From contig JBCBAP010000002.1 of assembly GCA_038532435.1 (NCBI GenBank), forward strand, positions 66,327 to 130,326: a DNA stretch of 64,000 nucleotides, written 5' to 3'. The DNA is from Pseudomonadota bacterium (lineage in GTDB: Bacteria > Pseudomonadota > Alphaproteobacteria > Rhodobacterales > Rhodobacteraceae). Positions within the stretch are counted from its first letter, which is position 1. Every line of letters begins with the position of its first letter. Below the pieces are notes generated by a model. It worked only from the letters and a program-made list of their open reading frames with translations, ran no database searches and was not told the DNA's origin. This document shows, in pieces, positions 4,736 through 40,944 of this stretch. The translations under genes and the position numbers were made by a program.

Positions 4736-6258
4736 GGCTGGCCGAACAGGGTTTCGACCGCGATCTGCCGGGCGACCCGCCCCTGTCCCGCCGCGTCGAG
4801 CGCGGAGAGCGCGCTGCGGAAGTCCGCGGGCTCGACGGCGGCGCCCGCGTCCAGAATGCGCAGAGCTGCGAGGATCGCCTCGCCCTCCCGCCCGCCTTCG
4901 GTCAGCAGCCGCAGGGGATCGTCCGCCTCCGCCCCGTCGCGAAACGCGCGCAGCGCAGCGTCTGCCCTGACCTCGCCATCACCGGCGGCAGCGGGCAACG
5001 GATCGGTGAAATCGCTGCCCCGGGCAAGCGCGAGGGCGGCACGGTGGAGCCACTGTGCCTCGCCAGGTAGCCAAGCGCCTGCTGCAATCGACTTGCCATC
5101 GAGAAGCAGCAGCTCTGCCACCCGTCCGGACGGGCGGGGGCGCTGTTTGATCAGCGTACCGGCATACATGCGTGCGAGCGCGGGGCGCAGCCCCTGGGGC
5201 GAAAGCGCGGTGTCAGCCGCCGCAAGCGCCTCCTCCCATTCCTCGCCATCGAGTGCTGCGTCGAGATCCTGGATCGCGCCCGCACGGCCCCAGACACCGC
5301 CGGACGCCGCAGGCGGACGCGCCCGATAGGCCGCTTGCAGGATCCGCGGGGGTGTCGTGGACTGGCGGACAAGCCGCTCGGCCACTTCAATCCTGTCGCG
5401 CACGGTCGCGGTATCCGACAGGTCCCAATGCAGGAACGCAAGGGGCAGAGGCTCCGCCGGGCGGGGCTGGCCGATCGCCTCGCGCACGACAAAGTCGAGC
5501 GGGGTCAGCGGCGATGGCGCGTCGAGTTCCTCATCTGTCGCGAAGAGTTCCGGATCGAGGAACCACGACATGTGCGTCGCCCGCAGCGGGTCGATCGCCT
5601 CGATCCGCTCCCCCACAGAGAGGGTGAAGGCAGCCGAACGCCAGTCGCCCCGCCGCACGGTGCAAAAGACCTGCGCCTGAATGCTGGGCGCAAACTCCGG
5701 GAAGGCCGCGATACGATCGCACGCCCTTTCCGTGTCGCCCGCCAGAAGGCTCGCATCGAACATCCGGCGGAACACATCGCGGCTCGGGTCGCCGATGAGC
5801 GCCATGAGCGCGCGCGCCTCCTCCAGCGCGCCGAGCATGAGCAGCATATCGATCCGTGAGAGCAACAGGTTCGATTGCTGGGATCCGCCGGCGGGTGGCG
5901 CGGTGCGCGCCAGCAGAAGCCGGGCGTAGAGCGCGCGCGCCGCGGGCACACCCGTGCCCTTGACCTGCCGCATCAGGCTCCGGATGCGCAGCCCGCTCGA
6001 CCGGCCCCAGACCTGCTTGGAGAATCCGGTGTTGGCACTCGGCAGCAACCCTATCCCGTCGAAGGAAAGGGGTGGCAAGCTTTCCTGCGTGACCTTTCCA
6101 CCGGTACTGCCCGGGGTGACGGACGGCGTCGCCCGCCCCGGATCGGCAAGCACATCAGACAGCCAGTCGATGGCGCTCAGGGGCGCATCCTGCGCCGCGG
6201 CATGTCCCGCTGTCAGCGACAGAAGAACCGCGGCAGCGATCTTACGAACCGAGATCAA
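4732..6258 (-). CDS. Secreted hypothetical protein; stop overlaps the xerD start
   Basis: Listed ORF is 4732..6315. SD GAGGAGG lies 9 nt upstream of an in-frame TTG at 6258, giving a canonical Sec signal (ISVRKIAAAVLLSLTAGHAAA/QD). The ATG-6315 extension is Arg/Pro-rich and overlaps a better small ORF. The 3' end forms an ATGA overlap with xerD. No family recognised. Confidence 0.6.
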   Translation of the reverse strand: MISVRKIAAAVLLSLTAGHAAAQDAPLSAIDWLSDVLADPGRATPSVTPGSTGGKVTQESLPPLSFDGIGLLPSANTGFSKQVWGRSSGLRIRSLMRQVKGTGVPAARALYARLLLARTAPPAGGSQQSNLLLSRIDMLLMLGALEEARALMALIGDPSRDVFRRMFDASLLAGDTERACDRIAAFPEFAPSIQAQVFCTVRRGDWRSAAFTLSVGERIEAIDPLRATHMSWFLDPELFATDEELDAPSPLTPLDFVVREAIGQPRPAEPLPLAFLHWDLSDTATVRDRIEVAERLVRQSTTPPRILQAAYRARPPAASGGVWGRAGAIQDLDAALDGEEWEEALAAADTALSPQGLRPALARMYAGTLIKQRPRPSGRVAELLLLDGKSIAAGAWLPGEAQWLHRAALALARGSDFTDPLPAAAGDGEVRADAALRAFRDGAEADDPLRLLTEGGREGEAILAALRILDAGAAVEPADFRSALSALDAAGQGRVARQIAVETLFGQP

Positions 6259-6379
6259 GGGGTACGACCTCCTCGACCGTCGAGCGCGGCGCGGGCAGAT
6301 CGGCAAACATGGCATAGACCGCGAAGCCAGCCACGGCGATCAGCAGCAACACGATCAAATAGAGCAGCACACGTCCCAT
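6242..6379 (-). CDS. Candidate 45-aa single-pass membrane micro-protein (below ORF-track cutoff)
   Basis: Hand translation gives MGRVLLYLIVLLLIAVAGFAVYAMFADLPAPRSTVEEVVPLDLGS*. There is one strong hydrophobic helix, AAGGA lies 9 nt upstream of the ATG, and the 3' end overlaps the TTG start of the next gene by 17 nt. Confidence 0.4.
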   Translation of the reverse strand: MGRVLLYLIVLLLIAVAGFAVYAMFADLPAPRSTVEEVVPLDLGS

Positions 6380-6509
6380 GCGCCTGTGTCCTTTGCCTCA
6401 TGCGCACGTCATCGCGTTGCGCTATTTTTTTCAGATGTTATCACTCAAAACCGAGGCAGGTCCACCGTAAGCCACAGGGGCGCGGGGCGGCGCCTCGTCC
6501 GACTCCGTT

Positions 6510-7112
6510 TTGCCATCAAGGTGTTGCACCCGCGTGACCGACCCAGCCACCACCGCAAGCCTGAAACGGCCGATCATCCTGATCGGACTCATGGGGGCCG
6601 GAAAGACCAGCGTCGGCCGGAGGCTCGCAAGCCGTATCGGGGCACAGTTCGTGGACTCCGATGCGGAGATCGAGGCGGCGGCGGGCATGAGCATTCCGGA
6701 AATCTTTCAGGTCCACGGGGAGCCGCACTTCCGTGCCGGGGAGCGCAAGGTGATCTCCCGCCTGCTCGATGGTCCGCCCCGTGTGGTGGCGACCGGCGGC
6801 GGGGCCTTCATGGCGCCGGAGACGCGGGAAGCGGCGCTGCAGGTGGGCACCGTCGTTTGGCTCGATGCAGACCTCGACACGCTCTTTGCCCGGGTGTCGC
6901 GGAAACCCGGGCGCCCGCTTCTCGCGCAGGACGACCCGAAGGCGGTGCTCGCTGCTCTCATGGATGATCGCTATCCCATCTATGCGCGGGCCCATGTGCG
7001 GGTGAGGTCCACACCGCAGGCAAGCCATGATGAGATGGCGGCAGCCATCCTTGAGGCCGTTGCGGCGTTCGACGTCACCCGCGCGGCGGCCGACCGCACC
7101 TTCCAGTCCTGA
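6510..7112 (+). CDS. aroK: Shikimate kinase
   Basis: P-loop LIGLMGAGKTSVG, plus DSD and GGG motifs, directly upstream of aroB. The start is uncertain: TTG at 6510 or in-frame GTG at 6534. Confidence 0.9.
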   Translation: MPSRCCTRVTDPATTASLKRPIILIGLMGAGKTSVGRRLASRIGAQFVDSDAEIEAAAGMSIPEIFQVHGEPHFRAGERKVISRLLDGPPRVVATGGGAFMAPETREAALQVGTVVWLDADLDTLFARVSRKPGRPLLAQDDPKAVLAALMDDRYPIYARAHVRVRSTPQASHDEMAAAILEAVAAFDVTRAAADRTFQS

Positions 7113-8250: not shown

Positions 8251-9459
8251 CTACCGCGCGCCAAGTCCCAGATGCATCGCCGCCTGTTTGAGCGGCCCGA
8301 TCCCGGACAGTGCACGAAGCCCGATCCGACGAAGGTCCCGCAGCGGCTGAGCCTCGGTCATCGCCGCGCGGTTGAGCAGGTCCACGCCAGTAATACGCAG
8401 GGCCACATCCGGCCGTCGCGCGCGGGCGTAGCGGGCGAGCAGGTCGGACGTTCCGATATCCTTGCCCGCGCTTCGCGCAGTCGTCACCAGATCGAGCAGG
8501 GTTTCGATATCCGCAAGGCTCATGTTGAGACCCTGTGCGCCAATGGGCGGCATCACGTGGGCGGCCTCGGCAATGAGCGCCGTGCGCGGACCGGAAAGCC
8601 GGGAAGCGGTCTGGCTGATGATGGGCCAGATCCTGCGAGGGGATGCGGGCGTGAGCCGCCCGAGAACGCCGCAGGCCCGCGCGTTCAGCGCCTCGGTAAA
8701 TGCCTCATCCGGCATCGCATAGAGTTCGGCGGCCCGCGCCCCGGTCTCTATCCACACCACCGCGGAACGGTTCTGCGTGCCCTCTGGACGGAGGGGCACG
8801 AGTGTGAAGGGGCCGCCGGTGCGGTGGATCTCCGTTGAGATATCCTCGTGGGGCAGATCGTGGTTTACCGCGAACACGAGTGCCTTCTGCCCGTATCGGG
8901 TCGTGCGAGCCCCGATGCCCAGCGCCTCACGAACGAAGGAGTTTCGCCCGTCGGCGCCAATCACAAGCTCAGCTGCTACGCTAGTTCCGTCGGTCAGCGT
9001 GACGCGGGCATGGTCCGATCGCACGAGCAGGTCGCTGACGCCAACGCCTGTACGCAACTCCGCAAGCGGCAGTTTGGCGATGAACCCGGTCATCTCCCGT
9101 CGGAGGAGCCAGTTTGGAAGGTTGTAGCCGAACACCTCCTGCCCGATCTCGCGCGCGGTGAAGTCCGCAACCTCCCGGATGCCATTCTCTTCGCCGCCCG
9201 CATCCGCGAGGCGCATAACGCGCAACGGGGCGGCAAAGGGGGCGAGGGCCGACCACAAGCCTACCCGCTCCATCAGGGTGATCGAAGGCATGAGGAACGC
9301 GGTGCTGCGCAGGTCGGACCCGTCCGCTGCCGCCTCTGTCACCGGTGGTACCGGGTCGACGCACAAAACCGTCAGGCCCTCGGCCGCAAGGGCAATGGTC
9401 GCCATCAGGCCGGCGACACCTCCGCCAGCGATGACCACATCTGTCTGGATCCGCTCCAT
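8251..9459 (-). CDS. UbiH/UbiF/VisC/COQ6-family FAD-dependent hydroxylase
   Basis: N-terminal DVVIAGGGVAGLMATIAL dinucleotide fold, about 400 aa, with a C-terminal GDAAH-like EAAHVMPPIGAQGLN motif. Confidence 0.8.
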   Translation of the reverse strand: MERIQTDVVIAGGGVAGLMATIALAAEGLTVLCVDPVPPVTEAAADGSDLRSTAFLMPSITLMERVGLWSALAPFAAPLRVMRLADAGGEENGIREVADFTAREIGQEVFGYNLPNWLLRREMTGFIAKLPLAELRTGVGVSDLLVRSDHARVTLTDGTSVAAELVIGADGRNSFVREALGIGARTTRYGQKALVFAVNHDLPHEDISTEIHRTGGPFTLVPLRPEGTQNRSAVVWIETGARAAELYAMPDEAFTEALNARACGVLGRLTPASPRRIWPIISQTASRLSGPRTALIAEAAHVMPPIGAQGLNMSLADIETLLDLVTTARSAGKDIGTSDLLARYARARRPDVALRITGVDLLNRAAMTEAQPLRDLRRIGLRALSGIGPLKQAAMHLGLGAR

Positions 9460-9463
9460 AAGT

Positions 9464-9489
9464 AAAAAGATAGGCCGCAGCCCCCGGCC
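9464..9489 (-). terminator. Weak hairpin plus T-run after the nucleotidase gene
   Basis: The minus strand reads GGCCG-ggggctg-CGGCC-tatcttttt, 12 nt after the stop at 9502. Confidence 0.35.
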
Positions 9490-9501
9490 CGGGAAGGGCG
9501 A

Positions 9502-10143
9502 TCAGACGAGCTGCGTCAGAAAGCCCTTGAGGTTGTCTGTGCGGAATTCGATGTGGGGGGCGACATGATCTCCGTCGACCAGGACCGTTCGCATCCCCCG
9601 CGCATGCGGAACCCGCAGGTTGTGCGGATCGTCCTCGAACATCGCGGCGTTCGCTCCATTGATCCGCGCCTTTGAAAACACGTGGTCGAACGCCTGCCTT
9701 TCCGGCTTGGGGGTGTAAAGCGCATCTTCGGTACCGTAGAGCGCCTCGAATACCCCCTTCAGGCCGCATGCTTCTGTCACCCGCCGCGCATGCTCCCGGG
9801 TGCCGTTGGTGAAGACGATCTTGCGTCCGGGCAGCGCGCGGATCGCCTCCCGCAAGTCCGGATCGGGACGGAGAGCGCTCAGATCGAGGTCGTGGACCTC
9901 GCGCAGGAACGGTTCAGGGTCGATCCCGTGGTTGCGCACGAGCCCGGCCACGGTCGCCCCGTGATCGCGGAAATAGCTTCGCTGCATTTCGCTGGCCGTC
10001 GGTTCGTCGACGTCGAGCTCCCGCTGGATGTAGCCGACGATCAGCTGATCCATCTGGCCGAACACGTCCGCGTCCCGCGAATAGAGCGTGTTGTCGAGGT
10101 CGAAGACCCATTCGTTTACATGGGAGAAGTGATCGTAGGGCAT
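9502..10143 (-). CDS. HAD-superfamily pyrimidine 5'-nucleotidase
   Basis: 213 aa with the DxDxT motif VFDLDNTLY, a TNG motif (IVFTNGT) and a C-terminal FEDD. Confidence 0.8.
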   Translation of the reverse strand: MPYDHFSHVNEWVFDLDNTLYSRDADVFGQMDQLIVGYIQRELDVDEPTASEMQRSYFRDHGATVAGLVRNHGIDPEPFLREVHDLDLSALRPDPDLREAIRALPGRKIVFTNGTREHARRVTEACGLKGVFEALYGTEDALYTPKPERQAFDHVFSKARINGANAAMFEDDPHNLRVPHARGMRTVLVDGDHVAPHIEFRTDNLKGFLTQLV

Positions 10144-10276
10144 GAAATCTCACCGGAACTGGTCCCTGCTACTTAAGTCGAACCGACTGTCATCGCCAGG
10201 GGATTCGCCGAGCCGTGAAGTCCGCGTGACCGGTCTGCTTGACTCCGATGGTACCCCGGTTGCACATTTCAGCACC

Positions 10277-10293
10277 ATGGTATGCAATACCAT
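10277..10293. promoter_or_regulatory. Candidate GntR-type operator ATGGTAT-GCA-ATACCAT
   Basis: Perfect 7-bp inverted arms with a 3-nt spacer and a GT...AC core, ending 20 nt upstream of the GntR gene ATG (10313). Confidence 0.5.
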
Positions 10294-10312
10294 ACCGAAA
10301 AAGGACGAAACG

Positions 10313-10957
10313 ATGCACGCGCCCGAACCCGGACCCACCGACGCCTACTCCCGCATTCTCGGCTCCATCGACCTTGGGGACTACTCTCCGGGGGACCGGC
10401 TGGTGGAATCTGAACTGGCGGACCGGCTCGGCATGTCTCGGACCCCGATCCGAGAAGCGCTGCAGCGGCTGGAGACGCAGGGGGTCTTGTCCCGGGATGG
10501 GCGGAGCCTCATCGTCGCGAGCCTCGATCACGATCAACTGGGCGAACTCTACGTTGTTCGGGCGGAGCTTGAGGGCCTTGCGGCCCGGCTCGCCGCGCAA
10601 CATGCAGCGCCGGAGGAAATCCGGGTACTCAACGACATGGTCGCCGATGACCGCGCGCTCCTCAACGATCCGGAGGAGATGAGCCGGGCCAACAAGCGGT
10701 TTCACCGGCAGATCCACCTTGCCAGCCACAACCGCTACCTGATCCAGCAGCTCGAGAGTGTTCGCCGCTCCATGGCACTGCTGGCCACCACCTCCTTCAG
10801 CGCGGAGGGACGCCCGGAGATTGCGATCGAGGAGCATGCTGCCATCGTCGCCGCCATTGAGGCGCGGGATGGGGAGGCAGCTGACGAGGCCGCACGGGTC
10901 CATATATCTACCGCCTACGAAACACGGCTCAAGATCGACGCGGGCGCCGGTCGCTAG
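10313..10957 (+). CDS. GntR/FadR-family transcriptional regulator (FCD domain)
   Basis: In-frame ATG at 10313. Winged helix-turn-helix ESELADRLGMSRTPIREALQRLETQGVL, followed by an all-helical FCD-like C-terminus. Confidence 0.85.
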   Translation: MHAPEPGPTDAYSRILGSIDLGDYSPGDRLVESELADRLGMSRTPIREALQRLETQGVLSRDGRSLIVASLDHDQLGELYVVRAELEGLAARLAAQHAAPEEIRVLNDMVADDRALLNDPEEMSRANKRFHRQIHLASHNRYLIQQLESVRRSMALLATTSFSAEGRPEIAIEEHAAIVAAIEARDGEAADEAARVHISTAYETRLKIDAGAGR

Positions 10958-10959
10958 AC

Positions 10960-11712
10960 ATGCGCGATCTCGATGGGATCGCCGCGGAAATCCACGCGGC
11001 ACGGCGGGATCGGTCGCCGTTCCGGGTCTATCCTGCTCTCGATATCGCGGCAGGCTTCGACGTGCAGGATCGGGTGACCGCGCGGTCCGGTCCGGTGGGG
11101 GGCTACAAGATCGCGTGGAATTCCGCCAAGCTGATGGCCGATTACCGCATGCCCCATCCGGGCGCTGCCCGCATCCTCGCCGCAGACATCCACGAGGATG
11201 GCGCAGTACTCGATCGCACCGCCTATCGCGAACTGCTCATGGAGCCGGAGATCGCTGTCATCCTCGGCCAGCCGGTCACACCCGACCATCCGTGGGACTG
11301 CGCGGATGACCTCCGGGAGCGGGTCGCACGGTTCGTGCCCGCGATCGAGCTGCTTGATCGGAGGGGTGCGCAGGAGCTTCATGCGCCGTCGATCCTTGCG
11401 GGGAATGTTTTCAACTGCGGGATCGTGCTGGGCGGGCCGGGGGCCGGACCCGATGCGGATCTCACCTCCCACTGCACGGTGACCTGCGCCGGGCGGGTTC
11501 TTTGCGATGCGCCGGACACGGCGCCGCAACCCGTGCTGGAGGCGATGGCGTTCTTGGTGAGACACTACACCTCCCGGGGCGTAACGCTCCACGCGGGCCA
11601 GGTGCTGATGTGCGGCACCCATGCGGGCATCACCCCGCTCGCGCCCGGTGACGAGGTGACGATGACCGTCACCGGGCTTGGGTCTGTCAGCCTCTGCGTC
11701 GCGGAGGGTTGA
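10960..11712 (+). CDS. 2-keto-4-pentenoate hydratase / 4-oxalocrotonate decarboxylase-like (FAH fold) protein
   Basis: 250 aa with a GGYKIAW motif. It starts 2 nt after the GntR stop, suggesting an operon. Confidence 0.6.
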   Translation: MRDLDGIAAEIHAARRDRSPFRVYPALDIAAGFDVQDRVTARSGPVGGYKIAWNSAKLMADYRMPHPGAARILAADIHEDGAVLDRTAYRELLMEPEIAVILGQPVTPDHPWDCADDLRERVARFVPAIELLDRRGAQELHAPSILAGNVFNCGIVLGGPGAGPDADLTSHCTVTCAGRVLCDAPDTAPQPVLEAMAFLVRHYTSRGVTLHAGQVLMCGTHAGITPLAPGDEVTMTVTGLGSVSLCVAEG

Positions 11713-33061: not shown

Positions 33062-34093
33062 TCAGGCAGATCCACGCATGATCAGCTTGCCGTCAAAGAG
33101 CGCGCTTTCGCGCACAGACGGCCGCTGCCCCGATTCTATAATGGACAAAAGCGCCTCGGCGCTTTTCTCGGCAATCGAGGTGTAGTCCTGGGATACGGTG
33201 GTGAGGGTAGGGCAGGTGTAGCGGGAAAACGGGTGGTCATCATGGCCTGCGACCCGCAACGCACAGCCGCTGCCAAGCCCCACGCGCAGGCCGAGTTCGT
33301 AGGCTGCAGACAGGAACCCGATGGCAAGCCGGTCGTTGCTGCACAGGACGGTATCTGTTGGCAGGTTTCGCTGCTCTATGAAACGGGCTCCTTCACGGTG
33401 GCCGATCTCCTCAAAATCCCACCCGTCCCCCTCTGCCTGGATGAGATGCGGCGTGTGGCCTCGCGCGTCCATCGCTGCGAGGTAGGCCGCCCGCCGTTTG
33501 TTCGCGTTCGGGTTGGTCGGTGACTTCATCTCGAAGAATGCCGGAGGCTCACCGGTCCGACACAGGTAATCCACGATCAGACCGACGCTCTGGCGGTTAT
33601 CCAGACCGACGAATGCCTCGCCTAACTCACTGATATTGCTGTCGAAAAGGACTGTCGGAACGTCTTTGCAGAACGCTTCGATGCGGCCGCTTTCCGACGC
33701 CCGGCCGAGCGGTGCCAGCAGGACACCCGCCGGTTTTATCGAGCGCAGGCTCTCCAGGTTGTCGAGCTCCTGCGAGGGATCCCCGTGGGAGCTCAGAAGG
33801 ATCGGGCGAAATCCTGCGGCAATGATCAGGTTTTCGATGTTGCGTGCGATCTCCGCAAAGAACGGATCCGCAAGGTAGGGCACGACGATGCCGATATTCT
33901 TCGTCAACCGGCGGTTCTGGTTCATCGCATAGACGTTGGGTCGGTAGTCATACCGCTCCAGCGCCGCCTCGATCCGCTGACGGGTCGACTGCCGGACGCT
34001 TTGCGGATCGTGGAAATACTTCGAGACCGTGGGCCGGGAGATCCCGCTGACCGCAGCGAACTCCTCCATGTTTCTGATCTTCGGTTCGTTCAT
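33062..34093 (-). CDS. LacI-family transcriptional regulator
   Basis: ATG at 34093. Helix-turn-helix MEEFAAVSGISRPTVSKYF, followed by a periplasmic-binding-protein-like effector domain. Confidence 0.85.
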   Translation of the reverse strand: MNEPKIRNMEEFAAVSGISRPTVSKYFHDPQSVRQSTRQRIEAALERYDYRPNVYAMNQNRRLTKNIGIVVPYLADPFFAEIARNIENLIIAAGFRPILLSSHGDPSQELDNLESLRSIKPAGVLLAPLGRASESGRIEAFCKDVPTVLFDSNISELGEAFVGLDNRQSVGLIVDYLCRTGEPPAFFEMKSPTNPNANKRRAAYLAAMDARGHTPHLIQAEGDGWDFEEIGHREGARFIEQRNLPTDTVLCSNDRLAIGFLSAAYELGLRVGLGSGCALRVAGHDDHPFSRYTCPTLTTVSQDYTSIAEKSAEALLSIIESGQRPSVRESALFDGKLIMRGSA

Positions 34094-34159
34094 CGTCTCT
34101 CGCCTCGGGCGCAGGGTCAGCCGCCGATCGCGCCCGCGTGCCATACTGTCCAATCTGCC

Positions 34160-34174
34160 TGACCATAATGGTCA
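34160..34174. promoter_or_regulatory. Palindrome TGACCAT-A-ATGGTCA
   Basis: 7-bp perfect arms, 67 nt upstream of the LacI-family gene ATG. Confidence 0.35.
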
Positions 34175-34268
34175 TACTTATTTGACGGGCGCAAACTTTG
34201 TGGTGTGAGATCAGTTTTGATTTGCGTCCAACCCCCGCAGTCTGCGTCGAATCACAGGGCAGTCGGTG

Positions 34269-34286
34269 GGAATCTGATCAGATTCC
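34269..34286. repeat. Perfect 18-bp palindrome GGAATCTGATCAGATTCC carrying two GANTC sites
   Basis: Read directly from the sequence. A third GANTC lies at 34249-34253. Confidence 0.6.
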
Positions 34287-34557
34287 AGTCTGTTGGCCGG
34301 CTGATATTGAGACTTTGATGCGTGTGTGTGCAAATCGCGAGTGCAGAGGTCAAAATCTGTGCAAATGGCTCCGTGGTATTTGTCCATTTGGTCAAGATGT
34401 TTGGTGTCCCCCTGAAATTCATGGTTCCGTTGGGTCAGTGAGTGCGTTCAGCGAGTTGCGTTGAGACCCGGCGGCGCAAGCAGACTGGCAAAGCCGGGGA
34501 GGCAGGAGCGGAGGTTCGCGAGGCGGAGTGCCCGTAGTTTGGGGGGCGGTCGCACGG

Positions 34558-34673
34558 GGCGAACAGCCCATACCGGTGGGGGTTGCCGGAGTTGGGGCCG
34601 CGGGGCCGGTCGGGCTGGAGCGTCTGGGGTATGTGCGGACCTCGGGCTGTTCGCCGACCAGCCGCGCGGCCCC
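34558..34673. repeat. Long-range inverted repeats forming a possible structured RNA element
   Basis: GGCGAACAGCCC (34558-69) pairs with GGGCTGTTCGCC (34644-55), a 12/12 match. GGGGCCGCG (34594-602) pairs with CGCGGCCCC (34665-73). A T6 run follows at 34677-82 on the plus strand. Confidence 0.45.
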
Positions 34674-34681
34674 ACATTTTT

Positions 34682-35242
34682 TCAGGCGCCGCGCGCGATC
34701 GCAGCAACGCCGGTGCGGGCAACCTCTACGAGGCCGAGCGGAACCATCAGATCCACAAACGCATCGATCTTCTCTGACGTGCCGGTCATCTCGAACACAA
34801 AGCTTTCGAGTGTCGAATCGACCACCTTGGCCCGGAAGACATCCGCGAGGCGAAGCGCCTCGACCCGGTCGTTGCCGGTACCGGCCACCTTGATCAGGGC
34901 AAGCTCGCGTTCCACGGATGGCCCTTCAACGGTCAGGTCGTGGACCTCGTGCACCACGACCATGCGTTCGAGTTGCGCCTTGATCTGGTAGATCACCTGC
35001 GGCGTTCCCGTCGTCACGATGGTGATGCGGGAGCGGTGGCCGGTATGGTCAATCTCAGCGACCGTGAGGCTGTCGATGTTGTAGCCGCGCCCCGAGAAGA
35101 GGCCGATGACCCGGGCGAGCACCCCATCCACATTGTCAACGACGACGCCGAGCGTGTGCCGCTCCACCACGTCACCGAGCGGGTTCTTGAGGTCGTAGGC
35201 GGACTGTCGGCTGGTGCCCTTTTTGATGTTGAGCGCGTTCAT
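34682..35242 (-). CDS. ilvH: Acetolactate synthase small (regulatory) subunit
   Basis: In-frame ATG at 35242 (MNALNIKKG) after GAGGA. ACT domain HTLGVVVDNVDGVLARVIGLFSGRGYNIDSL plus the ALS small-subunit C-terminal domain. The listed 285-aa ORF extension is rejected. Confidence 0.92.
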   Translation of the reverse strand: MNALNIKKGTSRQSAYDLKNPLGDVVERHTLGVVVDNVDGVLARVIGLFSGRGYNIDSLTVAEIDHTGHRSRITIVTTGTPQVIYQIKAQLERMVVVHEVHDLTVEGPSVERELALIKVAGTGNDRVEALRLADVFRAKVVDSTLESFVFEMTGTSEKIDAFVDLMVPLGLVEVARTGVAAIARGA

Positions 35243-35976
35243 GGGGCGGTTCCTCGTTTGATTTCGGGTCGTGTACCGGATTGGGTGGGCCGGGCCAAGG
35301 GGTCGGTCATCCAGGCGGGGCAGGCGGAGGCGATGCGGGCGGCGTCCTCTGGCGACATTTCGGTCCGGTGACGGCACGGAACGCCCTTGTTGAACTGGGT
35401 GAAGCGGGCCTGTTTGAGCGCGGCAACATCGATCGGCGCGCGGGAGACGCTGTGATGTGCGGCGAGCCGGTCGAGGGTCATCTCCGCGTCGAAAGCAATG
35501 TCCGCATAGTCGAGTGTCAGCGCGCCCGCGTCCTGCCACGCATCGAAAGCGGCGATCTGGCCGAGGATGCTTGCAAGTGCATCATCGAGCGTCCCGATCT
35601 CCGAGAACGGGATCTGTCCCCTGGCGCGAGCACGGGCGCCGTGGTCCATGAGCGACAGCGCCATGTCGCGCGGATCCCGCCAGCACGCATGGGCTGACGC
35701 CCGCCCGTCGCGCAGCAGGGGCAGGACAGCGGGGCCAGGGCGCTGATGGGTTTTCAGGACGAGGGGATGGCCCAGCCGTTGCGCCTCCAGCCACAGGCGC
35801 CCGAGCTGGCCGGGGCTCACGTCATCCACATAGTTGATGCGGCGGGGGGCTCCCAGAGCCTCAGCGGGCAGGTCAGGCTGCACAGGGCCCGCCGCATCGA
35901 GCAGGGCGCTTGTATAGTGGAACGCGAGCGTGGAGCCCGACTTCAGCATCCCGTAGCTGAAGATGAGTCGGGTCAC
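35239..35976 (-). CDS. Sulfotransferase-like protein
   Basis: GTG at 35976 overlaps the stop of the upstream gene (GTGA). It has a 5'-PSB-like LKSGSTLA and a 3'-PB-like WRDPRDMALS. Its stop overlaps the ilvH ATG (ATGA). Confidence 0.55.
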   Translation of the reverse strand: MTRLIFSYGMLKSGSTLAFHYTSALLDAAGPVQPDLPAEALGAPRRINYVDDVSPGQLGRLWLEAQRLGHPLVLKTHQRPGPAVLPLLRDGRASAHACWRDPRDMALSLMDHGARARARGQIPFSEIGTLDDALASILGQIAAFDAWQDAGALTLDYADIAFDAEMTLDRLAAHHSVSRAPIDVAALKQARFTQFNKGVPCRHRTEMSPEDAARIASACPAWMTDPLARPTQSGTRPEIKRGTAP

Positions 35977-36695
35977 GATCCGGCCATGAGGTCGCGCGCC
36001 ATCGCGATGAGCGGGGCGTTGTCTGCAACGGGTGTGCCGTCGGGCAGGCTTTGCACATCCTCCAGCCCCATGCGTGTGGACAGGCCACGCAGGCGCGCCT
36101 CCATGAGCATGGGCCAGGCGGACCGGCCGCAGCCATGGAGCAGGATCGGGAGGGCGGGACCATGCTCTGCCAGATGGGCAAGGATGCGCGCGGCTTCGGC
36201 CTTCGCGACCGGCGCGGAACAGTCGGGCAGTTCGATCAGGATGCGCAGGCACCTCTCCGCCGCGGTCAGGTCAGTGAACCGGCGGGCATCCTCGAGCGTC
36301 CAAAGCCCCGCCTCGATCCCGATCTCCTGCCGGATCATCAGGTCCATGACCGTGGGCGCGTCGGGTTCGCGCAGGTTGATCGAGACGAAATCGGGACGCT
36401 CCGTCCAGCCCGCGATATCGTCATGGCGGGCGGTGCCACCGGGCGCAATCCAGTCGCCGGTACCGATGCCCACACCCACGCCAGGGACCGCGGCACGGAT
36501 CGCGGTCAGTGCCGCGGCAACCGCATCGGGCGCGAGCGTTTCCACGCCAGCGGCATCGCGCGGGTGGACGTGCAAGCTCTCGGCTCCGGCAGCGATCGCC
36601 ACTTGCGCCTCGGCGGCCAGTTCCGCCGGGCGGCGGGGCACGCCCACCGCGGCATCTGGCTGGGTGCCGCCGTTGAGACAGGCCTGCAGCATCAT
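35973..36695 (-). CDS. DUF849 / beta-keto acid cleavage enzyme (BKACE) family protein, short form
   Basis: 240 aa with N-terminal ACLNGG and a metal-binding-like SLHVHPRD. Forms an ATGA overlap with the upstream lipoprotein gene. Confidence 0.55.
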   Translation of the reverse strand: MMLQACLNGGTQPDAAVGVPRRPAELAAEAQVAIAAGAESLHVHPRDAAGVETLAPDAVAAALTAIRAAVPGVGVGIGTGDWIAPGGTARHDDIAGWTERPDFVSINLREPDAPTVMDLMIRQEIGIEAGLWTLEDARRFTDLTAAERCLRILIELPDCSAPVAKAEAARILAHLAEHGPALPILLHGCGRSAWPMLMEARLRGLSTRMGLEDVQSLPDGTPVADNAPLIAMARDLMAGS

Positions 36696-37327
36696 TGGGT
36701 GACCTCCGCGCGCCAGGACCAGGAGACCTTGTTGGCGGCGGTGATCGGATCACGGCCGAGCCGGGCCACCGCCTCCGCAAGGGTGATCTCCGTCGCCTCG
36801 GGCATGACGAAGGGCAGGGCACCGCCTGACAGGCCCACCGGATCCCCGTCCACGATCTCGTCGGAAATGTAGAGCGATTCCGCGGCGAACCGGCAGGACC
36901 ACTGGCCCCCCGCCTCCTCGGTTACCGGGTTGTAGGTGTCCGGCCCGTATCGGTAGCACATGCGCGCCCGTCGCTCGTCGGGCAACTGCTCCGTCCGCCA
37001 GTCCCCGATCACCAACTCGACGTTGCCCGGATACCAGAGAAACGCCTTGCCGTCAGGCGAGAGGTATTCGATCTGGTTGCCGTGCCAAGGGGTGAAGCTG
37101 CGGGTCGTCGTGTCGGTGTAGAACGCCTCCAGCGTTTCCCGGGTTGCGGCGATGGCCTGCATGGCCTCCGCCTCTTCCAAGGTGATCGGGGCGATCCCTT
37201 CGGGCAGAGGCGGAACCTCGGTGCAGGCGGCGATCAGCAGGATCCCTGCGAAGCCAGGCAGCGACAGGGCGCGTTGGGGCCGACAGTGTCGGTGTTGCGC
37301 TTGCTGGTCGTGCTCTGCCCGTTTCAT
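36692..37327 (-). CDS. Lipoprotein of unknown function (paralog B)
   Basis: In-frame ATG at 37327 with lipobox LLIAAC. Shares FLWYPGN, YRY..YNPVT and GDP..LS.G..PF.MP blocks with the adjacent gene. Confidence 0.6.
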   Translation of the reverse strand: MKRAEHDQQAQHRHCRPQRALSLPGFAGILLIAACTEVPPLPEGIAPITLEEAEAMQAIAATRETLEAFYTDTTTRSFTPWHGNQIEYLSPDGKAFLWYPGNVELVIGDWRTEQLPDERRARMCYRYGPDTYNPVTEEAGGQWSCRFAAESLYISDEIVDGDPVGLSGGALPFVMPEATEITLAEAVARLGRDPITAANKVSWSWRAEVTQ

Positions 37328-37337
37328 GCGTGGAACC

Positions 37338-37931
37338 CTAGGAGTCCTCGAGCTGCGGTGCCGGTGTGTTCTCATCCAGCGGAGGCATTCGTTCTAAGCC
37401 GGCCCGCTCCATTGCATCAAGAAACGAGACGCGTTCGTCCTTGGGCATGATGAAGGGGATTTTGCCGCTAGACAGGTTGAAAGGATCTCCAACGAGCATA
37501 CGGTGCCTTGCCATCATGTAGTAAGTCCTGTCCCTGGTCTTCCAAGAATCTCCCAACTGGCGGGTCACAGGATTGTAGCTGTTGGGATATCGGTAGAAGA
37601 CTTGACTGTCTTTTATGTCCGGGTCGTACTCAACCTTCCAATAGCCATCAACGACCCTGCGGTTACCCGGATACCAGAGAAACAATCGCCCCTCCGGACC
37701 CACGTACCAGATCTGCATTCCGTGATCGTCGGAGTAATGGATGAAGGTGGTATCGGCGAGGAAGGCGAAAATGTTCTCGGGTGATGCTGCCGCTGTGAGT
37801 ATCTCGTCGACGGTCGACTTACCTCGTTGCGCGACGCCAAATTCCGTGAGCAGACGCTCGCGGTCGGACGGGCCGCAGGCGCCCAGGGCCATAAGAATAC
37901 CGGCGACTGCGACCCATGTTTTAAATGTCAT
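37338..37931 (-). CDS. Lipoprotein of unknown function (paralog A), low-GC
   Basis: 197 aa with signal plus lipobox MALGAC. It shares the same conserved blocks as paralog B. Three hand-counted 60-nt lines gave 47-55% GC. Confidence 0.6.
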   Translation of the reverse strand: MTFKTWVAVAGILMALGACGPSDRERLLTEFGVAQRGKSTVDEILTAAASPENIFAFLADTTFIHYSDDHGMQIWYVGPEGRLFLWYPGNRRVVDGYWKVEYDPDIKDSQVFYRYPNSYNPVTRQLGDSWKTRDRTYYMMARHRMLVGDPFNLSSGKIPFIMPKDERVSFLDAMERAGLERMPPLDENTPAPQLEDS

Positions 37932-37957
37932 TTTGCAAAAAACCTTGCTTGACAGGA

Positions 37958-39724
37958 TCAGACCAGAACGGCTCCGCCCGCCTCGATAGCGCCTTGGGTT
38001 TCGGCTTCGCCGAGGAGCATTTCATTGTGGGCCTTGCCCGACGGGATCATCGGGAAGCAGTTCTCGTGCTTCTCGACGAGGCAATCGAAAATCACGGGCC
38101 CATCATACTGGATCATCTCCATGATCGCATCGTCCAGGTCCGCGGGGTCTTTGCACAGGATGCCCTTGGCACCGAACGCTTCCGCCAGCTTGACGAAGTC
38201 CGGCAGCGCCTCTGACCAGGAATGGCTGTAGCGTTCCCCGTGGAGCAGTTCCTGCCACTGCCGCACCATGCCGAGGCGTTCATTGTTGAGGATGAACTGC
38301 TTGACCGGCAGGCGGTACTGCACCGCCGTGCCCATCTCCTGCATGTTCATCAGCCAGGACGCCTCTCCTGCCACGTTGATCACCAGCGCATCCGGGTGGG
38401 CGATCTGCACCCCGATGGAGGCAGGCGTCCCGTAGCCCATGGTGCCCAGTCCGCCCGAGGTCATCCAGCGGTTTGGATCCTCAAAGCCCATGAATTGTGC
38501 CGCCCACATCTGGTGCTGGCCCACCTCCGTGGTGATGTAGCGGTCATACTTCTTGGTCAGCGCCTCCAGCCGCTCAAGCGCGTACTGCGGTTTGATCGTG
38601 GTGGCGGAGTTGGTGTAGCCGAGGCACTTGATCGCCCGCCACTGATCGATCTGCGACCACCATTGGGAGAGGCGGTCAGAGCGGGTCTTTGACCCGCGCT
38701 CTTTCCAGACCCGCAGGATCTCCTCCAGCACTGCGCCGCAATCGCCGACGATCGGGACATCCACGTGGATATTCTTGTTGATCGAGGACGGGTCGATGTC
38801 GATGTGCACCTTCCGCGAGCCCGGAGAGAACGCATCGACCCGCCCCGTGATCCGGTCGTCGAAGCGGGCGCCGATACAGAACATCGCGTCGCAATCGTGC
38901 ATCGCCATGTTCGCCTCGTAGGTGCCGTGCATGCCCAGCATGCCCATCCAGAGCTTGCCGGAGGCCGGATAGCAGCCCAGCCCCATCAGCGTGGAGGTGA
39001 TCGGAAAGCCCGTCGCCTCCGCCAGTTCCCGCAGGAGGGCGGTGGCGCGGTTGTCGGTCTTGTTGCCCGAGTTGATCACGCCGCCGCCGGAATAGAGGAT
39101 CGGCCTCTCCGCTTGCTCGATCAGTTCGACCGCGGCGAGGATCGCGTCCGGATCGCCCGCGGTGCGAGGCTGATAGTGGCTGGTGCTCACCTCGTCCATC
39201 TGGACATAGTCCGCGGTGGCAAACTGGACGTCCTTTGGAATGTCGATCAGCACCGGGCCGGGCCTGCCGGAGGTCGCCACGTGGAACGCCTGGTGGATCG
39301 TGTCCGCGAGGTCCGCGGTGTCCTTCACCAGCCAGTTATGCTTCGTGCAGGGCCGGGTGATGCCGACCGTGTCCGCCTCCTGAAACGCGTCATTGCCGAT
39401 CATGAAGGTTGGGACCTGACCGGTCAGCACGATCATCGGGATGGAATCCATCAGCGCGTCCGTGAGGCCCGTCACTGCGTTCGTGGCCCCGGGCCCCGAG
39501 GTCACCAGAACCACGCCGGGCTTGCCCGTCGAGCGGGCATAGCCTTCCGCTGCATGGGTCGCGCCCTGTTCGTGGCGCACCAGGATATGGCGGATGTCGT
39601 TCTGCTGGAAGATCTCGTCATAGATCGGAAGGACCGCGCCGCCGGGATACCCGAACACGGTATCCACGCCCTGATCCTTCAGCGCTTTCACAACGATTTG
39701 TGCGCCTGTCATGGCTCGGGTCAT
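37958..39724 (-). CDS. ilvI: Acetolactate synthase large (catalytic) subunit, biosynthetic type
   Basis: 588 aa with GGAGAA 5 nt upstream of the ATG. Contains VFGYPGGAVLPIYD and the ThDP motif GLGTMGYG...NN. Confidence 0.95.
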   Translation of the reverse strand: MTRAMTGAQIVVKALKDQGVDTVFGYPGGAVLPIYDEIFQQNDIRHILVRHEQGATHAAEGYARSTGKPGVVLVTSGPGATNAVTGLTDALMDSIPMIVLTGQVPTFMIGNDAFQEADTVGITRPCTKHNWLVKDTADLADTIHQAFHVATSGRPGPVLIDIPKDVQFATADYVQMDEVSTSHYQPRTAGDPDAILAAVELIEQAERPILYSGGGVINSGNKTDNRATALLRELAEATGFPITSTLMGLGCYPASGKLWMGMLGMHGTYEANMAMHDCDAMFCIGARFDDRITGRVDAFSPGSRKVHIDIDPSSINKNIHVDVPIVGDCGAVLEEILRVWKERGSKTRSDRLSQWWSQIDQWRAIKCLGYTNSATTIKPQYALERLEALTKKYDRYITTEVGQHQMWAAQFMGFEDPNRWMTSGGLGTMGYGTPASIGVQIAHPDALVINVAGEASWLMNMQEMGTAVQYRLPVKQFILNNERLGMVRQWQELLHGERYSHSWSEALPDFVKLAEAFGAKGILCKDPADLDDAIMEMIQYDGPVIFDCLVEKHENCFPMIPSGKAHNEMLLGEAETQGAIEAGGAVLV

Positions 39725-39782
39725 CGGTCTTCTCCACTTGCTCCGGCGGTCTCCTCTGCCGCCGCTGGGTTTCGTTCCGGCA

Positions 39783-39807
39783 CAAAAAAACCCCCTTCCG
39801 GGGGTTC
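39783..39807 (-). terminator. Rho-independent terminator of the ilv attenuator
   Basis: The minus strand reads GAACCCCC-GGAA-GGGGGTT followed by TTTTT-GTG, 57 nt upstream of the ilvI ATG and 37 nt after the leader stop. Confidence 0.75.
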
Positions 39808-39843
39808 AGCGCGTTTGGTCCGTTGGGGATCAGTGCCCCCCGG

Positions 39844-39885
39844 TCAAACGCGCAAGCCGACAAGTACGATGCTGTTTCTCATCAT
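39844..39885 (-). CDS. ilv leader peptide MMRNSIVLVGLRV (13 codons)
   Basis: Hand translation of the minus strand. Six of 13 residues are Ile/Val/Leu. The UGA stop abuts CCGGGGGG, which can pair with the CCCCCGG arm of the terminator. Confidence 0.6.
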   Translation of the reverse strand: MMRNSIVLVGLRV

Positions 39886-39891
39886 GCTGTC

Positions 39892-39919
39892 GTTGTACCC
39901 CACCCATCGGGGGGGTCAA
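39892..39919 (-). promoter_or_regulatory. Promoter-like TTGACC-N16-TACAAC upstream of the leader
   Basis: The -10 element ends about 6 nt before the leader AUG, so the leader would be translated from a near-leaderless mRNA. No clear SD was seen. Confidence 0.3.
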
Positions 39920-40068
39920 GGGCGAAGATTCAGAAAAATGCGGGTAAGGGGTGGTGCGCGCAATTTTGTTAAGGCCGCACTCGATCCTGTTCCGACAGCA
40001 TCCCTTGTAGCACTCCACCGAGCAGCGGCCGTCAGCCACATCGTGTGTGATCCCTTGCGTTGGCGAGA

Positions 40069-40944
40069 TCACGACCAGTCCAATCCTGCCAGCCAGTCCT
40101 TCACCGCCATAACCGATGGGCTGGCCGCCTGATCGGCGTGAGAAAGGAGCCATACTTCCCGCGCAGGCGGCGGGTCATGACGCTCAACCGACAGCGGCCC
40201 CACGCGCGCATCGGGAAGTGCGACTGCGCGCGGCAGCAGTGATTTGCCGAGGCCGCAGGCAACCGCCTCCAGTGCCGTGTCCGCATCCCCGACCTTGATC
40301 AGGGTCTGTCTCTCCCGGTCATCTTCCGTCACCGCTTCAAGCCATCGCGCCTGTGGCAACTGGGCCAGGATGTCGGGGTAGGTGATCCACCCCAACGTCT
40401 CCAACTCATCCGGCGATATCGCACGGGAGGCGAACGCACCGAACCGCAGTTCCCCCAGCCTGTGCGCCTTGGTCTTCAGCCCCCCACCGGTCGGCCGCGC
40501 GAACCTGACGGCCAGATCCGCGTCGCGCTTGAACAGATCCAGGTTGGTCGCGGCGGGGAGCAATTCGACGGTCAGCCGGGGATGCCGCGCGCTCAAGGTT
40601 GCCAGATTGGGAACCAGCAGACGGTTCACGATGATCGGAACCGAGCTGATGCGGACGCACCCGGTGATATTGGGTCTCTGTTCCGCGAGCGTCTCGACGA
40701 TTCTGGAGTTCTCCCGCTCCACGGTTTCCGCAAGCGACATGATCCGAAGGGCGGCTTCGGTCGGCGTGTAGCGCCCTTCGGTACTTCCCAGAAACAGGGG
40801 TGCGCCAAGCTGAACCTCCAACGCGCGGATCCGGCGGGTGACGGTCGTCGGGCTCGCTCTCACCCGGCCCGCAGCACCCTTGAGGGTCCCGGAGCGATAG
40901 AGCGCGAGGAGGTATTTCAGATCGTTCCAATCGAAGCTCTGCAC
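40069..40944 (-). CDS. LysR-family transcriptional regulator
   Basis: GTG at 40944 gives (M)QSFDWNDLKYLLALYRSGTLKGAAGRVRASPTTVTRRIRALE. The listed 642-aa ORF is an artefactual upstream extension. Confidence 0.85.
   Translation of the reverse strand: MQSFDWNDLKYLLALYRSGTLKGAAGRVRASPTTVTRRIRALEVQLGAPLFLGSTEGRYTPTEAALRIMSLAETVERENSRIVETLAEQRPNITGCVRISSVPIIVNRLLVPNLATLSARHPRLTVELLPAATNLDLFKRDADLAVRFARPTGGGLKTKAHRLGELRFGAFASRAISPDELETLGWITYPDILAQLPQARWLEAVTEDDRERQTLIKVGDADTALEAVACGLGKSLLPRAVALPDARVGPLSVERHDPPPAREVWLLSHADQAASPSVMAVKDWLAGLDWS

Follow-up and report, generated by a model that had tools for sequence, protein, structure and literature searches.

In canonical alphaproteobacterial ilvIH operons, the genes for the large (ilvI) and small (ilvH) subunits of acetolactate synthase (AHAS) are usually adjacent and are preceded by a leader with a peptide rich in branched-chain amino acids (BCAA) and a terminator. 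The operon analyzed here is located in a stretch of 64,000 nt from a member of the Rhodobacteraceae (Pseudomonadota bacterium, assembly GCA_038532435.1, contig JBCBAP010000002.1, positions 66,327 to 130,326 of the forward strand), further referred to as the window. It shares the ilvI and ilvH orthologues and the leader with these operons, including a weak match of the leader to the Rhizobiales Atu_C8 small RNA model, but 2.7 kb with four genes lie between ilvI and ilvH (2,715 nt from the ilvI stop to the ilvH start), compared to 9–170 nt in related operons without cargo. An original prediction, made from the DNA sequence, regarded these four genes as one passenger module without a described counterpart. 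We found that the layout is best explained as an expanded form of a widespread operon variant specific to this lineage and not as a new BCAA-linked system, and that the ilvI-ilvH gap is a recurrent site for accessory genes, most of them related to the cell envelope.

The operon comprises six co-directional genes on the minus strand, for which the open reading frame (ORF) list and the sequence agree:

39724 to 37958, minus strand: ilvI, AHAS III large subunit, 588 aa (NCBIfam NF006581, 1121.5 bits, cut-off 974; three TPP_enzyme domains)
37931 to 37338, minus strand: lipoA, predicted lipoprotein, 197 aa, lipobox LGAC (paralogue of lipoB)
37327 to 36692, minus strand: lipoB, predicted lipoprotein, 211 aa, lipobox IAAC (start uncertain, with an alternative upstream ATG at 37375)
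36695 to 35973, minus strand: BKACE, short enzyme of the BKACE/DUF849 family, 240 aa (Pfam PF05853, 79.9 bits)
35976 to 35239, minus strand: ST, sulfotransferase of the type dependent on 3'-phosphoadenosine-5'-phosphosulfate (PAPS), 245 aa, GTG start (homologues, motifs and fold; the N-terminus agrees with that of homologues)
35242 to 34682, minus strand: ilvH, AHAS small subunit, 186 aa (NCBIfam NF008864, 215.3 bits, cut-off 119)

Both ilvI and ilvH score above the curated equivalog cut-offs and are thus biosynthetic AHAS III genes. The junctions are as tight as originally described, with 26 nt between ilvI and lipoA and 10 nt between lipoA and lipoB, followed by three 4-nt overlaps (ATGA, GTGA and ATGA), the last of which embeds the ilvH ATG in the ST stop. 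The GC content of lipoB, BKACE and ST is 67–70%, versus 63% for the ilv genes, and that of lipoA is 0.556. An antisense ORF (35746-36702, plus strand, 318 aa, GC content at third codon positions (GC3) of 0.79) was rejected as a high-GC artefact; the BKACE and ST frames have homologues, and BKACE also has a Pfam match.

The ST gene resides in the ilvI-ilvH gap across a whole clade. The first three ST homologues, picked at random, were all located between ilvI and ilvH (Rubricella, Rhodobacterales 52_120_T64 and Limibaculum). One genome per GTDB species was then covered by a scan with the ST alignment, yielding 80 loci of which the flanks were classified by tblastn (compared loci are given as L-numbers). 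The order ilvI-ST-ilvH is present in about 50–60 species-level Rhodobacterales genomes, and every Rhodobacterales locus with both flanks preserved has this order on one strand. The median ilvI-ilvH gap measures 826 nt and is occupied by an ST gene of 750–790 nt. In most loci ilvI and ST are 5–25 nt apart, while the junction between ST and ilvH ranges from a 4-nt overlap up to about 100 nt; the ATGA overlap recurs in seven other genomes (L053, L054, L056, L060, L066, L069 and L076). The carriers include Amylibacter, Limibaculum, Thermohalobaculum, Rubricella, Oceanomicrobium and many metagenome-assembled genomes (MAGs) of marine Rhodobacterales. ST homologues from Verrucomicrobia, Acidobacteria, Actinobacteria, Acetobacteraceae and others are never adjacent to ilv genes. 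Given this distribution, the statement that no comparable layout is known was overstated, although we found no description of the ilvI-ST-ilvH layout in the literature and the existing annotation is generic only.

The phylogenetic signal agrees with this residency. On a neighbour-joining tree of ilvI plus ilvH (98 loci and the window), the 50 loci with ST fall into essentially one clade. Fitch parsimony requires three changes for ST presence, while 500 permutations of the labels needed 33 on average and never fewer than 24. Pairwise distances of ST and ilvI co-vary (Mantel r 0.70, p 0.001), with a mean p-distance of 0.53 for ST versus 0.19–0.21 for ilvI and ilvH. Two near-identical contigs (L090 and L091), positioned beside Rubricella and the window within the ST clade, have no ST and an ilvI-ilvH spacer of 167 nt that folds into several GC hairpins. 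They probably represent a secondary loss of ST.

The gap also accommodates unrelated genes in other lineages. In a second sample, seeded with ilvH, 80 metagenome contigs were collected with an ilvH 74–83% identical to that of the window, and 72 operons included the 3' end of ilvI. The spacer is 9–170 nt long in 53 of them, and the other 19 (26%) have a gap of 305–3006 nt with other cargo; ST, BKACE and the lipoprotein are absent from all 19 large gaps. The cargo includes BrnT/BrnA toxin-antitoxin pairs, two different FkbM methyltransferases, Acyl_transf_3 proteins (on three contigs), two tandem GT87 membrane glycosyltransferases, 99-aa lipoproteins and an opposite-strand membrane protein. Ten of these loci with a near-full ilvI are scattered among cargo-free operons on the tree, which indicates independent insertions. 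BrnT/BrnA pairs occur in the gap at five loci, one of which is also listed as L088 (L033, 2510-3083; L087, 6847-7408; L096; L107, 2323-2917; L115), beside ST in L033 and beside a lipoprotein homologue in L087; this homologue in another lineage is 35% identical to lipoA. Additions are found within the ST clade as well: an M90 peptidase upstream of ST (L026), the BrnT/BrnA pair downstream of it (L033) and an opposite-strand Cys-rich gene (L051). Locus L061 has three ST paralogues in the gap (9139-11551), two forward and one reverse, and Rubricella (L001/L007) has a second, reverse-strand ST paralogue with 31% identity (8894-9355).

Two further features of the gap were observed in these loci. A protein of 166–173 aa recurs in it (L100, 5484-5984; L106, 5462-5983; L107, 1640-2146; L120, 126-641), with the motif HSL.SS.REEYVEYI.L..LC...W....F.EVAR.QTDA.GYDLVL....I.RHVQLKAS and no Pfam match. 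Its D..V/L...Q-L-K pattern is reminiscent of PD-(D/E)xK nucleases. The cargo-free operons fall into two spacer classes (as read from L103, L111, L112, L118, L122, L125, L130, L135, L136, L145, L149, L155, L165, L167 and L168), one of 9–13 nt (TAAGGAG...ATG) and one of 53–170 nt with a conserved element. The latter consists of a GC hairpin, CCGGGGG-N3-7-CCCCCGG, and then CCCCCG(A/T)GGGATATTTTT..AGATGAAAGGG directly before ilvH. No Rfam family matches this element, which may be an intercistronic RNA element or a partial terminator.

The earlier assignment of ST as a sulfotransferase-like protein holds. PF00685 is present in most of its 77 homologue clusters (precomputed matches, weak or faint in some). 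In an alignment of 26 sequences K12, T16, K75/H77 and R100-D104 are invariant and S108 is nearly so, and both the LKSGST and the RDPRD motif of ST fall in invariant columns. The family profile matches Teg12, Teg14 and StaL, with the KTH...RDPRDMxLS stretch aligning to Teg12. The AlphaFold2 (AF2) model of ST has a pLDDT of 90, and the top 50 Foldseek matches of this model in the PDB are all sulfotransferases or retinol dehydratase (probability 1.0, TM-score 0.45–0.62). Homologues, motifs, profile and model thus support a predicted PAPS-dependent sulfotransferase. When plasmids were searched with ST by tblastn, the outcome was two remote cyanobacterial matches (24–25% identity) and no evidence of plasmid carriage.

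Clues about the substrate come from the neighbours of ST homologues outside the clade. On an Acidimicrobiia contig the homologue overlaps a gene for an 888-aa multi-glycosyltransferase by 4 nt and is followed by a sulfatase gene. It adjoins GT4 glycosyltransferases in Sinobacteraceae, Acetobacteraceae and an alphaproteobacterial MAG, an ABC-2 (Wzm/Wzt-like) exporter in a Hyphomonadaceae MAG, and GT2, GT1, a methyltransferase and a polyketide synthase in Vicinamibacteria. Because of these outgroup contexts and the glycan-decorating occupants of the gap (acyltransferase, methyltransferases and GT87), the most likely role of ST is the O-sulfation of a glycan or glycoconjugate in the cell envelope, our best guess by analogy with these neighbourhoods.

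The DUF849/BKACE assignment was likewise borne out, with a PF05853 score of 79.9 bits against a gathering score of 24.8 over profile positions 3-255 of 274. The Zn-site motifs correspond to those of Kce (PDB 2y7d), LHVHPRD aligning with IHLHIRE and RMGLED with RCGFED. An identification as Kce orthologue was rejected (NF052387, 38.6 versus a cut-off of 382 bits), and the protein remains under every NCBIfam equivalog cut-off; the 'Kce' names in the source databases are therefore generic. Acetolactate was considered as a substrate and rejected as well: it is a beta-keto acid, but its quaternary C2 would bar Kce-type enolate chemistry. The short BKACE subfamily is large (more than 877 matches). 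Its members of about 240 aa occur in Liv-type ABC transporter operons of a Rhodobacteraceae MAG (L171, 5001-5738) and Mesorhizobium sp. J428 (L172, 5001-5732), where the BKACE gene lies between a Peripla_BP_6 gene and two BPD_transp_2 permease genes with 4-nt overlaps. The BKACE of the window looks like a catabolic-type enzyme recruited from such a transporter-linked context.

The two putative lipoproteins are paralogues (36% identity, E 6e-36), as had been noted earlier, and a lipobox was read by pattern in both (lipoA, ...GILMALGAC|G; lipoB, ...GILLIAAC|T). They have no Pfam or NCBIfam match. A profile search placed them in a family of 813 representative clusters with the conserved motifs HGTQ.EY, LWYPGN, YNPVT and GD.FNLSSG..PF, most members of which have a Cys after a hydrophobic stretch. 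The AF2 model of lipoB has a pLDDT of 81, and Foldseek gave no match to this lipoprotein model in the PDB at E <= 0.001, the best one being the TP0435 lipoprotein (E 0.17). These features suggest exported envelope proteins. A member of this family (P0085) was also seen in locus L089, on a contig of 1.69 Mb, where it lies on the opposite strand between rplB and rplW (6001-6606). The interval between rpmC and rplP in the same locus (1658-2921) holds genes for a 2OG-Fe(II) oxygenase and an AAA_18 kinase-like protein. The S10 ribosomal-protein operon of L089 is thus another conserved operon with inserted genes.

The four genes of the window differ in distribution, and the order of their acquisition (ST, BKACE, lipoB, lipoA) follows from which relatives share which gene. 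The presence of BKACE in the gap is limited to Rubricella (58% identity, with a 4-nt overlap with ST), a sister MAG (L170) and the window. The sister MAG has the order ilvI-lipoB-BKACE-ST-ilvH with the same three overlaps and no lipoA. At high identity (97%), lipoA was found in one other MAG only, and its GC3 is 0.672 versus 0.79–0.85 for its neighbours. The window is hence the most expanded version of the ilvI-ST-ilvH layout. Between the window and the sister MAG, identity reaches 96% for ilvI and 98% for ilvH, and 74–79% for the shared cargo (lipoB 79%, BKACE 74%). The ratio dN/dS (nonsynonymous to synonymous divergence) is 0.04 for ilvI, 0.01 for ilvH and 0.18–0.25 for the cargo (lipoB 0.18, BKACE 0.25); dN of ST amounts to 0.17 versus 0.01–0.02 for ilvI and ilvH. 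Since dS is comparable across cargo and flanks (0.58–1.0), these ratios indicate that the cargo is functional and co-inherited with the flanking genes, but far less constrained. The idea of one coherent four-gene unit was not upheld; judged from the sequences, the module looks like a stepwise accretion of unrelated accessory genes.

We favor, with confidence slightly above even, a reading in which the ilvI-ilvH gap is a long-lived cargo slot in an essential operon, its genes are expressed by read-through and ST probably sulfates an envelope glycan. This reading builds on the observed gene identities, residency of ST across the clade, acquisition order and purifying selection on the cargo. The ST gene would have entered the gap once, early in the clade and directly before ilvH, and would then have been inherited with the operon. 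The window lineage would have stacked genes on the ilvI side, first BKACE, then lipoB and lastly lipoA. Since terminators are absent and the genes are chained by 4-nt overlaps, transcription that starts at the ilvIH promoter and passes the leader attenuator would read through into the cargo. In addition, lipoB, BKACE, ST and ilvH could be translated by termination-reinitiation, with ilvH also retaining its own Shine-Dalgarno sequence (SD). Only compact, same-strand, terminator-free insertions would keep ilvH expressed, a need that would account for the tight junctions. BKACE would be an unrelated, Zn-dependent beta-keto-acid/acetyl-CoA enzyme, and the module would be accessory, outside BCAA synthesis.

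The leader and the end of the operon contain three further features:

39885 to 39844, minus strand: candidate leader peptide ORF MMRNSIVLVGLRV, followed by a stop codon (7 of 13 codons for Ile, Leu or Val; read from the sequence and by script)
39807 to 39781 (hairpin 39807-39788), minus strand: leader terminator or attenuator hairpin GAACCCCCGGAAGGGGGTT and then T7, 8-bp GC stem (terminator scan)
34674 to 34593, strand unassigned: 21-nt inverted repeat, 90% complementary, 40-nt loop, no T-run, directly 3' of the ilvH stop

A BCAA-rich short ORF followed by an intrinsic terminator thus precedes ilvI, as in a leader attenuator. The leader (39775-39886) gave a weak Rfam match to Atu_C8, under the gathering score (32.2 bits, E 0.0015), and Rfam matched nothing within the module itself when positions 34000-40500 were searched. 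The leader hairpin is the sole strong terminator-like site in 34300-40200, in line with what the original prediction had noticed. Six sites were found in the scan versus 3.3 ± 1.7 in shuffled sequence, and the two other minus-strand matches are 5-bp stems inside lipoA and lipoB. Nearly all of the related loci that were checked have a comparable GC hairpin with a T-run, at a distance of 50–120 nt upstream of ilvI. The inverted repeat 3' of ilvH may mark the operon end or be a REP-like element. Between the leader and the end of ilvH, the scan found no strong terminator and no sigma-70-like promoter. Given that terminators are missing, that the spacers measure 26 nt and 10 nt and that three junctions overlap, a single transcript from the leader through ilvH is plausible in the window, with lipoB, BKACE, ST and ilvH translationally chained. 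The stronger proposal, a requirement of the module in cis for the translation of ilvH, was not supported. An SD-like GAGGAA sits 8 nt upstream of the ilvH ATG in the window, so that a dependence on ST translation need not be obligatory, and most relatives have a spacer of 10–100 nt with an SD between ST and ilvH.

Several points weigh against the favored reading. The window ST itself has no Pfam match at E <= 0.1, and the Verrucomicrobia homologues are flanked by efflux and OmpA/HtrA genes, not by glycan genes. The ilvI plus ilvH tree carries no support values, and the taxonomy of the metagenome contigs is inferred from their ilvH identity alone. The clade-wide retention of ST upstream of ilvH, together with the recurrent ATGA overlap, would fit a functional tie to AHAS equally well. 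The remaining points concern transcription. The promoter scan used a crude sigma-70 consensus, which alphaproteobacterial promoters may escape. In an Amylibacter subgroup (L013, L018, L021, L024 and L050), ilvI and ST are separated by an AT-rich spacer of 140–280 nt (e.g., L013, 9855-9995) that opens with a classic intrinsic terminator, e.g., GCCCGCCTTTTGGCGGGTTTTTT. There, ST and ilvH are probably transcribed as a separate unit, and control by the ilvI attenuator is thus not universal. Finally, some gaps contain genes on the opposite strand, which implies that independent expression of ilvH is possible. The proposal of a single, attenuator-controlled transcript is consequently plausible for the window and does not extend to the variant in general.

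A more specific proposal, which we regard as tentative and rather doubtful, is that the ilvI-ilvH junction of Rhodobacterales is a dedicated, lineage-wide slot for the repeated insertion of accessory genes into an essential operon under attenuator control, and that ST became fixed there as an ST-ilvH unit throughout the clade. Envelope sulfation could in this way be deliberately coupled to expression of amino-acid biosynthesis (growth state), or ST could even have taken on a role in small-subunit expression or AHAS function.

The observations in the Amylibacter subgroup and the opposite-strand genes are also what speaks for a split operon, in which the cargo and/or ilvH would be expressed from internal promoters (at the AT-rich ilvI-lipoA junction or within lipoA) and attenuation would control ilvI only. 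In the window, the AT content of lipoA and of the junction upstream of it, which include a T6 run, is unusually high for the genome, and the hairpin element between ilvI and ilvH in many cargo-free relatives hints at regulated read-through there generally. We consider such a split unlikely for the window, however, as the promoter and terminator scan of the module was negative, the 26-nt ilvI-lipoA spacer folds into a stem of about 3 bp only, and the succession of three 4-nt overlaps favors translation from lipoB to ilvH as a single chain.

Less probable still is that ST, perhaps with BKACE, is a functional partner of AHAS or BCAA metabolism that modifies a metabolite or IlvH/IlvI, its position reflecting co-function. 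ST is immediately upstream of ilvH in every carrier, even where a terminator parts it from ilvI, and has been kept intact across about 50–60 species. The short BKACE homologues in Liv-type operons (Peripla_BP_6, BPD_transp_2 and BCA_ABC_TP_C genes) of two other genomes point in the same direction, such transporters being often BCAA-related; HAAT-family transporters, however, take many non-BCAA substrates. Against this reading, ST homologues outside the clade are never found beside ilv genes and occur mostly in glycan or envelope contexts, unrelated cargo occupies the same gap in other lineages, ST evolves much faster than ilvI and ilvH, and the nested L090 and L091 apparently lost ST while keeping ilvIH. 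To our knowledge, no biochemistry ties sulfation to AHAS.

That the four genes arrived together as a recently acquired genomic islet or mobile element is very improbable and largely refuted already: their composition is unlike that of the ilv genes (lipoA low in GC, the other three high) and toxin-antitoxin pairs occupy the same gap elsewhere, but the four genes differ in phyletic depth, lipoB, BKACE and ST have the same dS relative to the sister MAG as their flanking genes, ST co-diverges with ilvI, no integrase or transposase was found among the six ORFs (ORF list, Pfam and NCBIfam), and a repeat search at the module edges gave only chance-level matches of 14–34 nt and no flanking direct or inverted repeats. 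PADLOC models gave no match to the four cargo proteins at E <= 0.01.

If the cargo-slot reading is correct, the locus provides a clean natural example of an essential biosynthetic operon that tolerates and then fixes foreign genes, provided that the insertions are compact, same-strand and terminator-free and take on the regulation of the operon. The layout itself reveals no new pathway or mechanism. The ST family is an uncharacterised marker of a large marine Rhodobacterales clade and a testable handle; it may determine surface-glycan sulfation, with a bearing on interactions with phages, grazers and hosts. In addition, an uncharacterised lipoprotein family of about 800 clusters has been flagged.

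Among described proteins, ST shares its fold with the Sulfotransfer_1 enzymes (Teg12/Teg14/StaL, cytosolic SULTs and TPST), including the 5'-phosphosulfate-binding loop (5'-PSB) K-S-G-S-T, the catalytic His of K-T-H and the 3'-phosphate-binding motif (3'-PB) R-D-P-R-D..L-S. It differs in having only 12–19% identity to them and in belonging to a compact bacterial family of about 80 clusters, with a length of 245 aa in the window. A functional analogy is offered by two alphaproteobacterial PAPS-dependent enzymes, LpsS of S. meliloti (PMC12445080) and NodH, which sulfate lipopolysaccharide or lipo-chitooligosaccharide. The annotation of LpsS places it in the Stf0 family of sulfotransferases (PMC12445080, Table 1). 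This sets it apart from the family of ST, and ST was accordingly rejected as an LpsS orthologue; neither LpsS nor NodH is described as ilv-linked. The window BKACE shares PF05853 and the HxH and (G)-L/F-E-D Zn-site motifs with Kce (PDB 2y7d), but is 240 aa long versus 270–310 aa, and its subfamily is found elsewhere in Liv-type operons. The BKACE family was screened by Bastard et al. (2014), as summarised in bioRxiv 10.1101/2023.02.15.528638.

With flexible genomic islets, the gap has several gene types in common, namely sulfotransferase, Acyl_transf_3, FkbM methyltransferase, GT87 and BrnT/BrnA. Such glycan-decorating and toxin-antitoxin genes are typical content of the flexible genome. In contrast to these islets, the cargo described here lies inside an essential biosynthetic operon, has no integrase, tRNA or repeat boundaries, and includes one occupant, ST, that is fixed across the whole clade.

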